15,856 bases of DNA, taken from assembly GCA_000002435.2 (NCBI GenBank), contig AACB03000028.1. One strand, given 5' to 3'. The notes under the pieces were generated by a model. The model ran no database searches, had not been told where the DNA came from, and was given only the letters and a program-made list of their open reading frames with translations. Below are positions 1-15,856 of this stretch, piece after piece. The first letter of the stretch is position 1. Every line of letters begins with the position of its first letter. The translations under genes were made by a program, and so were the position numbers. The stretch is from Giardia intestinalis. Taxonomy: Eukaryota.

Positions 1-114
1 GTCATCGCTGTCGTGGGGGGCCTCGTGGGCTTCCTCTGCTGGTGGTTCGTGTGCAGGGGAAGGCGTGACTTGGGTAGTGAATGCTGTACAATGTGTGATA
101 GGGTGATAGTATGA
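1..114 (+). CDS. 3' end of a VSP unit (U0, partial, runs off the left edge). It encodes the transmembrane helix and cytoplasmic tail. The tail is frameshifted by a 1-nt deletion in a G-run, so CRGKA becomes [20 protein letters not shown] and the stop moves to 112..114.
   Basis: In frame 1 the translation is [22 protein letters not shown]..., identical to the C-termini of the other units except GGGGG has become GGGG before AAGGCGTGA. The same lesion occurs in unit U4 at about 8893. Confidence 0.8.
76..82 (+). promoter_or_regulatory. Giardia polyadenylation signal AGTGAAT (consensus AGTRAAY) for U0
   Basis: It has the same sequence and spacing (CTTGGGT then AGTGAAT) as the signals found after every CRGKA stop in the array. 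Confidence 0.7.
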
Positions 115-117
115 TAG

Positions 118-1990
118 TGGAGTGAGATATGCACAAAGGCTGAGGGAGGACTGTGCACTGCTTGTAAGACAGCTAACGGCCTGTTCAAGAACCCGGCTGC
201 AACACCAGAGAAGGGTAGTGAGTGCATACTGTGCTCTGATACGACAGATAGAAACGGGGTCATGGGAGTCGCTGGATGCTCAGAATGCTCCCACACGGGC
301 ACTAGCGGACCGGCCACGTGTACAGAGTGTCAAGCAGGGTTCGTTACGAAGGACAGTGCATGTGTGAAGTGCGGAGACGGCTGCTCTGCTTGCTCAGCTG
401 ATACTCCGACTCAGTGTACCGCCTGCGTTGAGGGGAAGTACCTGAAGGATGGTAACACTTGTGTAGATGCTGGTGGATGTGACAATGGTAACTATGCGGA
501 CAAGAAGACCTGGACCTGTAAGGCCTGCAGTGAGATACAAGGATGCACCGCGTGTGCATACGACGACGCCACGGGAAAGCCGAAGTGCACCGACTGCGGT
601 AGTAAGACGGTCAGAGACGAGCTGGATGGGACAACGACCTGTGTTGATGAGGCCGAGTGCAAAGTGGGCAAGACGCACTTCTACGACGCCTCGAAGTGCG
701 TGCAGTGCGGCGACAATGGTAAGGGCGGAGTCCAGAACTGCAAGCTGTGCACCGCAAAAGGCACCTGCGAGGCTTGTGTCGACGGGTATAAAGTCAACGG
801 AAACGCCTGCGAGGCCTGCACAGGAAACTGCGCCAGAGTGCGGAACAGCGGGTCAAATCAACACATGTACAAGATGCATGCCGGGGTACTTCCTTAAGGA
901 TGGCCCGCCTAAGACATGCGTTCTCTGTGATGACGAGACAAGTGGGATTCCAGGCTGTGCCGAGTGCACAGGCGGCGTGGGGGTCCCTCAAATGCACTGA
1001 ATGTAAGCCCAACTACAGACCCAGCGGAGAACCTAGCGACCTCACATGTACAAAGACCTGTGAAGATGAGACTGCATGTGGAGGGACAGCAGGGCCTGCG
1101 ACGCCATCGTGGTCGGCAACGACGGCAGCATGCTCTCTTACTGTTCAAAGTGTGTTGGCGCCGGCTATGGCCCTATTAATGGGAAGTGCACCAATGCACT
1201 TGCAGGTAATACCTGCGCCGATGGCGTATGTACGCGGTGCACCAACAACTACTTCCTCTATATGGTGGTTGCTATGATGTGTCGAAGGCTCCTGGCAACC
1301 TCATGTGCTCTGCGGCTCCAAGTGGGTTCTGCACCACACCGGTCGGGCGCTACTTCAAGATTCCCGGGGACTCTGCTGCTCAGCAGTCCGTGCTTGCCTG
1401 TGGCAACCCTGTGGGAGCGACCGCGGGCGACAAGGCGTACGTCGGCGTGCTAGACTGCACGGCGTGCGCGGCCCGCAGGCGCCAGCCGCCAATGCGATGG
1501 CCGCGGCGGTCTGTAGTGCGTGCGACAAGACGAAGAAGCCAACAAGGATGGCAGCGGGTGCACCCTGTGTGCGGTCGGCGGGTGCAAGAGCTGCGCCATC
1601 GACGGGATGTGCGAGGTGTGTGCTGAGGACAATAAGAAGCCCAACATGGCTGGAAGCACCTGCTATGTGTGTCCGGCCCAGGGCTGCTCTCACTGCAGCG
1701 CAGACAACAAGTGTGAGGCATGTACCAATAAAGACCAGAGACCCAGCCTGGACGGCACCCAGTGCATTGTCTGTGACATAGAGAGGTGCATGCGGTGCAG
1801 CGCAGAGGGCGTCTGCGGGGAGTGCGAGGAGGGCTATGTCCCGAGGGATGGCATGTGTGTGTCCTCTGGCACCAACAGGAGCGGGCTCTCCACGGGGGCC
1901 ATCGCGGGGATCTCCGTCGCTGTGGTCGCTGTCGTGGGGGGCCTCGTGGGCTTCCTCTGCTGGTGGTTCATATGTAGAGGGAAGGCGTGA
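118..1990 (+). pseudogene. VSP unit U1. It is a divergent family member with the tail FICRGKA. The 5' 780 bp are open in frame 1 (118..897). There are then at least five frameshifts before the intact transmembrane/CRGKA end (1520..1990).
   Basis: ORF-track pieces 262..897, 467..1000, 900..1277, 1076..1453, 1228..1626, 1305..1781 and 1520..1990 each carry consecutive VSP motifs (CXXC, KPNYR, CEDETACGGT, NNYFLYM, GGCYDV, KAYVGV, transmembrane helix plus CRGKA) in different frames. The ORF opens after the TAG at 115..117 with no ATG. Confidence 0.75.
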
Positions 1991-1997
1991 CTTGGGT

Positions 1998-2004
1998 AGT
2001 GAAT
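1998..2004 (+). promoter_or_regulatory. polyadenylation signal AGTGAAT for U1
   Basis: It lies 7 nt downstream of the TGA at 1988..1990. Confidence 0.7.
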
Positions 2005-2041
2005 GCTGTACAATGTGTGATAGAGGGTGATAGTATGATAG

Positions 2042-13953: not shown

Positions 13954-13960
13954 AGTGAAT
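13954..13960 (+). promoter_or_regulatory. polyadenylation signal AGTGAAT for U6
   Basis: It lies 7 nt after the TGA at 13944..13946. Confidence 0.7.
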
Positions 13961-14006
13961 GCTATACAATGTGTGATAATGGGTATAGAGGGTGATAGTG
14001 TGATAG

Positions 14007-15829
14007 TGGAGTGTGATATGTACAAAGGCCAGTAATGGACTGTGCACTGCTTGTAAGACAGATAACGACTTTCCAGAACAGGCAGACAGGTGACCTGGTG
14101 GGAGTGCATCTTGTGCTCTGATATCAAGGGGCAATGGATATACGGGGTGGCAACTGCTCAAGTGTACGGCACCAGGAATGCAGGACCTGCCACGTGTAAT
14201 ACTGTCAAGAGGGTACTTCCTAAACAACAGCTTTGTAAGCATGCGAGGAACTGTGCACCTGTGAGAATCGGCGACCAGTGACATCGTGTCCAGAGGGGAA
14301 GTACCTCAAGGGAATCAATGTACTGATACTGTGGTATGATAAGTATGCTGACCCGGAGTCTGGAACGTGCATGGCATGTAGTACGATACACGCAGAGTGC
14401 ACGGCATGCTCCTTCGACAAGGCCACGGGGAAGCCAAGTGCACTAACTGCGGGACCAATAAGACCCCCAGGACGGCCCTCGACGGGACATCGACCTGCGT
14501 GGCGAAGACGCTTGAAGGATGCGAGGGCGCTGACGAGGCCTTATTTATGAAGGAGGACAAAACGTGTGCTCTTTGTAGTGATGTGACAGATTCAACTCTT
14601 GGTAACGAAGGAAAGGCCAACTGCAAGACATGTACGAAAACAGGAAGTGACAATCCAACCTGCTCAGCCTGTCTCGATGGATACTTCTTTGATAGTGGTA
14701 CTAGTACATGTACAGACAAGTGTGGTGATAACTGTGCCACATGCTCTGTTGCTGGTGATCCAAATAAGTGTGAAACCTGCAAGACTGGATACTTCTTAGT
14801 AACTACTACAGATCAACAGGGGAAGAAGTGCGTCCCATGCGATAGCGTAGACGATAAGGGTCGCGAAGGCTGCAGTGTCTGCTCTAACAACGGTGCTTTC
14901 AAGTGCACTGACTGTAAGCCTAACTATCGCAAGGAGGGCAGTACTGGCTCTGTCACATGCACCAAGATCTGTGAAGATGATACTGCCTGTGGAGGAACTT
15001 CTGGTGCCTGCGATGCAATAGTGATTGATGATAAGGGTGTAGAGCATCATTATTGCTCATACTGTGGAGAAGCTAATACGTATCCTATAGATGGGAAGTG
15101 TAATAGTGCTAAAGCAAATAATCAATGTGATCAAGGTGTATGTACACAATGCACTAACAACTACTTCTTGTATATGGGAGGTTGTTACAAGGTTGATACA
15201 GTACCTGGACAACATATGTGCAAGACAGCAGCCAACGGTGTCTGTACTGCTGTTAATGCCAACAATAGGTACTTCATAGTCCCTGGGGCAACCAATCAGA
15301 ATCAGTCTGTATTGGCATGTAGCAACTCCCTTGGCACACTAGTAGGCACTGGTGATACCTCTAAGGCATACGTGGGGGTAGATGGCTGTTCGGCATGTAC
15401 GGCCCCAGCAGCTCCATCTGAGACTGGTATGACTGCTGCTGTGTGTACAGCGTGTACCAACAACAACAAGCCCAACCTGGCTGGGAGCGGGTGCTTCGCA
15501 TGTACCGTTGACGGATGCTCGCACTGTGGAGCAGGCGGTAAGTGCGAGGCCTGTACCAGTAAAGACCAGAGGCCGAACACAGACGGAACGAAGTGCATCG
15601 CCTGCAATATCGACGGGTGCGTCAGGTGCAGCGAGGAGAACAAGTGCGGCCAGTGTGGGGACGACTACAGGCTGGAGGGTGAGCGTGCGTGTCCACCAAG
15701 CCCAGCGGGGGCAACAGAAGCGGCCTCAGTACTGGTGCCATAGCAGGGATCTCCGTGGCTGTCATCGCTGTCGTGGGGGGCCTCGTGGGCTTCCTCTGCT
15801 GGTGGTTCGTGTGCAGGGGGAAGGCGTGA
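14007..15829 (+). pseudogene. VSP unit U7, a decayed whole-unit copy of U2. Its first roughly 400 bp carry many short deletions. One further 1-nt deletion near 15680 (GAGGCG has become GAGCG) truncates it before the transmembrane helix.
   Basis: The ORF track has fragments 14090..14281, 14278..14550 and 14397..15743 in different frames. The 14397..15743 piece is identical to U2 and U5 protein apart from an AGDK to AGGK change and the final ...[11 protein letters not shown]... frameshift. Confidence 0.75.
14344..15829 (+). repeat. Copy 3 of block A, carrying two 1-nt deletions
   Basis: See copy 1. Confidence 0.75.
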
Positions 15830-15835
15830 TTGGGT

Positions 15836-15842
15836 AGTGAAT
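15836..15842 (+). promoter_or_regulatory. polyadenylation signal AGTGAAT for U7
   Basis: It follows TGATTGGGT. One C has been lost from the usual CTTGGGT. Confidence 0.6.
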
Positions 15843-15856
15843 GCTGTACAATGTGT

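Follow-up and report, generated by a model that had tools for sequence, protein, structure and literature searches.

A same-strand array of 5'-truncated VSP cassettes in Giardia intestinalis, probably a stretch of a silent WB-type linear array

Tandem runs of cysteine-rich VSP units in Giardia raise the question of whether each unit is a complete gene, expressible on its own as a surface antigen, or a partial copy. Here we ask this of a 15,856-nt stretch of Giardia intestinalis DNA (NCBI GenBank assembly GCA_000002435.2, contig AACB03000028.1), the whole of which we call the window, and which an initial annotation had described as a tandem head-to-tail array of at least eight VSP units with all of the diagnostic features of the family. 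We find that the units are 5'-truncated, promoterless psi-VSP/pVSP cassettes and not complete VSP genes, and we consider it probable that the window is a stretch of a VSP "linear array" of G. duodenalis assemblage A1 (WB type), made up of seven same-strand, tandem, silent psi-VSP cassettes. The element belongs to a class that is already known, the silent VSP linear array, and is not a new kind of element.

We divided the window into units U0–U7 at its VSP stop/AGTGAAT junctions. Eight such junctions (VSP C-terminal tail, TGA, AGTGAAT) are present on the + strand and 0 on the − strand, with the AGTGAAT heptamers starting at 76, 1998, 3903, 5790, 8913, 10837, 13954 and 15836. They mark off seven complete units, each 1.9 or 3.1 kb long, and leave 82 nt of a further tail at the left edge, so that the "at least eight" units described initially hold as eight head-to-tail tails but not as eight complete units. 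Both ends of the window fall inside the array. The units and junctions are as follows:

1–82, + strand: U0, the 3' end of a unit cut by the window edge (transmembrane helix, tail, stop and poly(A) heptamer)
83–2004, + strand: U1, a 1.9-kb 5'-truncated VSP cassette, split over all three frames
2005–3909, + strand: U2, a cassette with an unbroken 617-codon frame (2042–3892) that ends in CRGKA and has no start codon
3910–5796, + strand: U3, a cassette with an unbroken 611-codon frame (3947–5779)
5797–8919, + strand: U4, a 3.1-kb long-type cassette, frame-broken
8920–10843, + strand: U5, a U2-type cassette, its frame broken near 9231–9237
10844–13960, + strand: U6, a long-type cassette with an unbroken 1002-codon frame (10938–13943) that ends in CRGKA
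13961–15842, + strand: U7, a U2-type cassette
3893–3946, + strand: a representative inter-unit junction, consisting of TGA, 7 nt, AGTGAAT and a 37-nt spacer of GTGATAG-like repeats that ends in TAG, after which the next frame opens
66–117, 1988–2041, 5780–5833, 8903–8968, 10827–10880 and 13944–14006, + strand: equivalent junctions

An unbroken frame is found only in U2, U3 and U6 (3/7), with U1, U4, U5 and U7 split across frames. The distance from stop to heptamer is exactly 7 nt (CTTGGGT) in seven of the eight junctions and 6 nt in the last, which is the one departure from the AGTRAAY poly(A) signal that had been placed 7 nt after each stop. We rejected statistical enrichment of AGTRAAY by count, since its 8 occurrences in the window compare with 6.9 expected and show no excess over chance; only position is informative here, and placement is clearly non-random, with each copy lying 6–7 nt past a VSP stop. 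A stand-alone control VSP in the ENA contig L001 has the same stop-to-AGTGAAT spacing and the same 3' architecture. From each stop to the opening of the next cysteine-rich frame there are 51 nt, bearing out the tiny intergenic regions noted earlier, and in all seven units this frame opens directly past TAG at TGG AGT GAG ATA TGC (WSEIC). The inter-unit spacer itself (83–117, 2005–2041, 8920–8958, 13961–13998) consists of degenerate GTGATA(G)-like hexamers, each supplying stop codons, and its length of 35–39 nt varies through gain or loss of repeat pieces; the U7 spacer additionally carries a 9-nt ATAATGGGT insertion.

The description of the window as a single-orientation array with no intervening non-VSP genes was confirmed by these eight same-strand junctions and by the rest of the window, in which we found no Rfam family and no tRNA, and no Pfam match in the long − strand open reading frames (ORFs); other genes on either strand were accordingly rejected as candidates. 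Measured GC content is 0.527 overall (local range 0.47–0.61), in keeping with the stated value of about 50%.

The membership of the units in the VSP family is well supported. In a search of the unit proteins against the Pfam VSP domain PF03302, six unit segments scored 34–285 bits (E 1e-8 to 1e-85), above the cutoff of 31.4 bits. The units contain 12.3–12.5% cysteine, with CXXC counts of 28, 28 and 44 vs. 9–15 in shuffled sequence, and the C-terminal transmembrane segment has a mean Kyte-Doolittle hydropathy of 2.19, all as the initial annotation had described. Its invariant CRGKA tail was found in six of the eight tails; the other two (at 52, in U0, and at 8889, in U4) read CRGRRDL because a run of five G bases is a run of four there. 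GGCY motifs are likewise present but number one per unit, compared with two in complete relatives, whose first GGCY lies upstream of the truncation point described below. Every significant homolog in a search among 5.8 billion proteins is a VSP of Giardia duodenalis/intestinalis, and tracts of 25–367 aa in the units match annotated proteins of WB (assemblage A1) at 100% identity. Together with the PF03302 matches and the CRGKA tails, these results uphold the Giardia intestinalis VSP assignment and identify the source as a WB-type assemblage A1 genome. A metagenome scan for the 25-nt junction sequence gave no match. We rejected an origin in G. muris, as the tails read CRGKA (the G. intestinalis type) and not GCRGK, and an identity as high cysteine membrane proteins (HCMP/CRMP), as a CRGKA tail is present. 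HCMP/CRMP proteins resemble the units in their cysteine-rich CXXC ectodomain and related transmembrane helix, but have a variable tail without CRGKA, whereas CRGKA is found in 6/8 tails here and the other two are disrupted only by a 1-nt loss.

It is at their 5' ends that the units depart from complete VSP genes. We used complete WB proteins as the 5' reference; the L001 control confirmed the 3' architecture, and its gene caller had used a GTG start. Alignment of U3 with the nearest complete VSP, P0001 (708 aa, with a signal peptide), placed the opening of the U3 frame at residue 103, directly past the first GGCY module (...FMGGCYKTSQ/WSEICT..., with the slash at the truncation point), and in every unit the 5' truncation falls here, at residue ~103 of complete relatives. 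An in-frame start codon is missing from the opening of each, the first in-frame methionine falling at residue 131–263 (residue 191 in U2), and neither the signal peptides nor the N-terminal ~94 aa of nine complete VSPs have a genuine match in the window in any frame. The VSP initiator motif TAATGTT/CAATGTT (as in Adam et al. 2010) has 0 occurrences in the window on both strands; the junctions carry only CAATGTG, whose ATG is followed by a stop within 6 codons. The initial description of the units as having all diagnostic VSP features thus fails at the 5' end, where in-frame ATG, signal peptide, first GGCY module and initiator element (Inr) are all missing from every unit, and with it goes the implied count of eight VSP genes.

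We also considered the internal methionines as true starts, as in the gene models of the 2007 WB annotation, and rejected them, since no signal peptide would result. An ATG overlapping the poly(A) heptamer (AGTGAATGCTGTAC...; 80–97, 2002–2019, 3907–3924 and equivalents) yields only MLYNV* in the window. In other WB array members (P0004, P0009 and P0030) this same ATG opens annotated ORFs starting "MLYSDSDS..MWCGGDS..LFMGGCY", from which it follows that these 2007 "VSP" models start in the 3' signal of the preceding unit and have no signal peptide. Upstream of the stand-alone and otherwise canonical VSP P0015 (L001 9941–10000), in-frame translation of the 60 nt before the called GTG start gives NPVHTTAFLLIPLFAVSTIA, which resembles a signal peptide; these 60 nt contain no ATG, which may reflect loss of the start codon, a start further upstream, or an error.

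Comparison of the units with one another reveals abrupt switches between identity and divergence. U2 and U5 differ by 2 substitutions in their last ~1500 nt (from about +420) and by ~30% in their first ~420 nt; U4 and U6 show 0 substitutions in their last ~1520 nt and are ~30% diverged upstream; and U3 and U4 are identical over their first ~400 nt and divergent beyond. The U0 tail is 99% identical to the U4 tail at 8838–8938. Other repeats cross the junctions, such as 3333–4335 vs. 5220–6222 at 96.9% identity, and a higher-order repeat, whose two copies are 93.5% identical over 4039 nt, spans more than one unit:

6835–10857, + strand: higher-order repeat copy A (3' part of U4, and U5)
11889–15856, + strand: higher-order repeat copy B (3' part of U6, and U7)

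Similar patchworks relate the units to annotated WB proteins. U3 is a mosaic with tracts identical to P0004, P0002, P0001, P0022 and P0018, and the partners in identical tracts include complete VSPs with signal peptides (P0001, P0017 and P0022). Positions 1044–1927 of U1 encode residues 433–728 of the complete WB VSP P0017 (KAE8304683.1 / XP_001705078.1) at 100% identity. Over 427 aa, U2, U5 and U7 each show 99.5% identity to the WB model XP_001705784.1; U4 at 7018–8885 matches residues 259–881 of XP_001705785.1, a model to which U4 is essentially identical over its 3' two-thirds and U6 over its 3' half. XP_001705783, 784 and 785 are consecutive models of the 2007 WB annotation, so the adjacency of a U2-type to a long-type unit, as in U5–U6, was already present in the 2007 assembly. 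Within the diverged blocks, the ratio of nonsynonymous to synonymous substitution rates (dN/dS) is 0.20–0.29, 95–100% of cysteines are conserved in most unit pairs, and indels are mostly multiples of 3, indicating that these blocks evolved under protein-level constraint. Such constraint fits movement of sequence between cassettes and functional genes, and not long neutral decay. One of the U3 tracts, of 125 aa (4673–5047), is 100% identical to P0002, a protein annotated as "High cysteine membrane protein Group 1" that ends in YRGRK and not CRGKA; this suggests either that P0002 is a VSP whose tail has mutated or that genes named VSP and genes named HCMP have exchanged sequence.

Arrays of this form have been described in Giardia. 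"Linear arrays", with as many as 10 members, hold more than half of the vsp genes of WB (Adam et al. 2010, BMC Genomics 11:424; PMC2996952). They have spacers of mean ~60 bp (range overlapping to 241 bp), a first member that has a normal upstream region and Inr, and downstream members that lack Inr and were proposed to be unexpressed, as either recombination cassettes or discarded remains; closely related pairs with long 100% identical regions were noted within arrays (PMC2996952). In a later survey of cysteine-rich families, pVSPs that lack a start codon are listed as occurring "in arrays of multiple pVSPs" (bioRxiv 10.1101/2022.03.07.483299). The window shares with the WB linear arrays its head-to-tail units, spacers of ~50–60 bp, downstream members without Inr or proper start, and closely related pairs with long 100% identical regions. 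Every testable property of a linear array was found in it (short-spaced same-orientation units, missing 5' elements, and signs of duplication and recombination), and those that mark a complete VSP (ATG and signal peptide, initiator element) were not. The array annotated in 2007 as XP_001705783.1/784.1/785.1 has the same U2-type to long-type adjacency; unlike those three models, the window runs in a longer alternating order (U2-type, U3, long, U2-type, long, U2-type), the 5' thirds of its U4 and U6 differ from XP_001705785.1, and it carries many 1-nt indels. The two may be the same locus, or the window may be an allele or come from another A1 isolate.

The psi-VSP arrays of G. muris offer a second parallel, as they too consist of tandem VSP copies without signal peptide, are made by duplication and bear signs of recombination or gene conversion. 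Xu et al. 2020 (Microb Genom 6:mgen000402, PMC7641422) showed that there is virtually no transcription from these arrays and that sequence passes between them and intact VSPs, and likened them to the archives of Trypanosoma and Pneumocystis. The G. muris arrays differ from the window in their GCRGK tail (CRGKA here) and species; they lie next to telomeres, and their transcriptional silence is established. Further afield, silent antigen-gene archives that feed segmental gene conversion (VSG pseudogene arrays of T. brucei, MSG genes of Pneumocystis, Borrelia vls cassettes and Anaplasma msp2 pseudogenes) resemble the window as tandem, promoterless, 5'-truncated antigen cassettes that are mosaic to expressed genes. 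The VSP family has no homology to any of these (VSG, MSG, vls or msp2), and those organisms have been demonstrated to switch antigens by conversion into an expression site; in Giardia, switching is considered epigenetic or post-transcriptional.

On our preferred reading of the window as a silent linear array, each cassette is a VSP coding region cut at about codon 103, with a ~37-nt GTGATAG-rich spacer between it and the preceding unit's stop and poly(A) signal. Because start codon, signal peptide and initiator element are missing, the cassettes would not be expressible on their own as surface antigens. The junction-spanning repeats and the 4-kb higher-order repeat suggest growth of the array in blocks of one or two units, through tandem duplication or unequal crossing-over, and the abrupt switches from 0% to ~30% divergence, along with the 25–367-aa tracts identical to different WB VSPs, point to segmental exchange. 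The most likely role, following the proposals of Adam et al. 2010 and Xu et al. 2020, would be that of a silent archive of VSP sequence, donating and receiving segments over evolutionary time and so diversifying the expressible repertoire.

Since more than half of the complete units are frame-broken, the nature of these breaks bears on how far the cassettes have decayed. All eight clean breaks consist of one base lost from a homopolymer run inside an otherwise identical tract (1094, 1264, 1473 and 1541 in U1, 8160 and 8892 in U4, 15683 in U7, and the U0 tail at 52). In U1, the 296 aa shared with P0017 include 4 frameshifts and zero amino-acid substitutions, and over ~1520 nt U4 differs from U6 only by two missing G bases (at 8160, and at 8892, where the tail G5 is reduced to G4). 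A further U4 break lies near 6451–6510. Compared with U4, U6 shows indels of +1, −2, −4 and −4 nt within ~100 nt (10872–10969) that jointly bring the frame back (net −9), leaving its first ~30 codons out of frame and the remaining 1002 open. Set against U2, about 19 small deletions fall in the 5' ~480 nt of U7; they are one-directional, with no comparable insertions, and U7 also has a 1-nt loss in the spacer between its stop and poly(A) heptamer. Error-like indels are concentrated near both window ends (1–2004 and 13961–14440), and the window, given also its odd length of 15,856 nt, may be the whole of a small contig with low coverage in a long-read assembly. Because the frameshifts come without substitutions, are all contractions and cluster near the window ends, consensus error in long reads, and not decay, probably accounts for most of the frame breaks. 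Several long-read A1 assemblies of Giardia exist.

This bears directly on the possibility that the units are dead remnants, that is, discarded VSP copies in neutral decay with no donor role, whose frameshifts are genuine lesions. The many disruptions in U1, U4, U5, U7 and two tails, and the identical G4 tail in U0 and U4, speak for such decay; "remains of discarded vsp genes" is the alternative named by Adam et al. (PMC2996952), and a 2022 preprint takes reading frames split across three frames as evolutionary indels (bioRxiv 10.1101/2022.03.07.483299). Decay is hard to square, however, with frameshifted tracts that have zero substitutions (U1 and U4 vs. U6, as above), with clean breaks that are all homopolymer contractions, with the one-directional and clustered deletions of U7, and with a dN/dS of 0.2–0.3, retained cysteines and diverged-block indels in codon phase; the long identical tracts held in common with intact genes imply recent exchange. 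We therefore regard decay as unlikely. Quite unlikely is an assembly artefact, in which the copy number, order or higher-order repeat would come from mis-assembled noisy long reads of a shorter locus or of several loci. The error-like indels near both window ends, the near-identical multi-kb repeats, the odd window length and the historically poor assembly of VSP arrays would all fit, but the units differ by discrete, substitution-rich mosaic blocks of a kind that an artefact does not make, the U2-type to long-type adjacency appears independently in the Sanger-based WB annotation as consecutive models, and arrays of up to 10 members are documented (PMC2996952).

The reading adopted in the initial annotation, that of eight complete and individually expressible VSP genes with tiny intergenic regions, draws on the VSP domain, CXXC pairs, transmembrane helix, CRGKA tail and well-placed poly(A) signal at each unit, and the 2007 WB annotation likewise called such units "VSP" from internal methionines (e.g., XP_001705784.1). 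We consider it very improbable: there is no in-frame ATG before residue 131–263, no signal peptide or Inr and, in any frame, nothing homologous to the N-terminal ~100 aa; without a signal peptide, a type-I protein has no route to the surface; 4/7 units are frame-broken as sequenced; and later classifications class such models as pseudogenes (bioRxiv 10.1101/2022.03.07.483299). The least probable account is one in which the array serves as an RNA source, with read-through sense or antisense transcripts of the cassettes feeding silencing, by RNA interference (RNAi) or microRNA, of all but one VSP. RNAi is implicated in VSP control, and the many copies of a conserved VSP 3' region on one strand would suit such a source; against it stand the lack of a promoter-like Inr on either strand, the lack of Rfam matches in the window, and the G. 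muris psi-VSP arrays, which are essentially untranscribed (PMC7641422).

A stronger version of the archive role, in which the array is an active donor whose cassette segments are gene-converted into complete VSP genes within the timescale of an infection or culture, seems to us highly unlikely. The tracts identical to intact WB VSPs (P0001, P0017 and P0022) and the coding-type divergence are compatible with it, but do not give direction, rate or timing. Antigen switching in Giardia is generally held to be epigenetic or post-transcriptional, proceeding without DNA rearrangement, and so leaves an active donor role during switching unsupported. Were it nonetheless true, the archive would supply new mosaic antigens and add a DNA-level layer to Giardia antigenic variation, as with trypanosome VSG or Borrelia vls.

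This view of antigen switching also tells against our preferred reading of a silent, recombining linear array, as do several other points. Silence is something we infer from the missing 5' elements and from the G. muris data, and the first member of the array, which lies outside the window, could carry a promoter, allowing read-through or operon-like expression. Recombination, in turn, is deduced from protein-level identical tracts. The homopolymer losses could be real slippage mutations, and U0 and U4 may have inherited their common G4 tail, which would then not be an error. The frame-break question bears on how "dead" the cassettes look, and not on the 5' truncation, which is the same in all units.

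If the window is read as a silent linear array, counting such units as VSP genes overstates the expressible antigen repertoire. This happened in the 2007 WB annotation, and the tally of complete VSPs was later brought down to about 136. Where VSP repeats have been assembled from long reads, a broken frame should be checked against the reads before it is called pseudogenisation. The window also provides a clean example of the mosaic structure behind the published hypothesis of linear arrays as a recombination reservoir.

Two minor observations concern annotation. Long antisense ORFs of up to 366 aa lie opposite the VSP frames on the − strand (e.g., 10338–11438, 1355–2260 and 12267–13100). Rather than being genes, they probably follow from the biased codon use of VSPs, with positive GC and AT skew throughout, and they gave no Pfam match. 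Finally, two Giardia duodenalis proteins with a VSP Pfam domain and ~50% identity to the units, P0067 and P0093, carry the NCBI names "NAD synthase" and "Dynein light chain, partial", which are probably annotation transfer errors.

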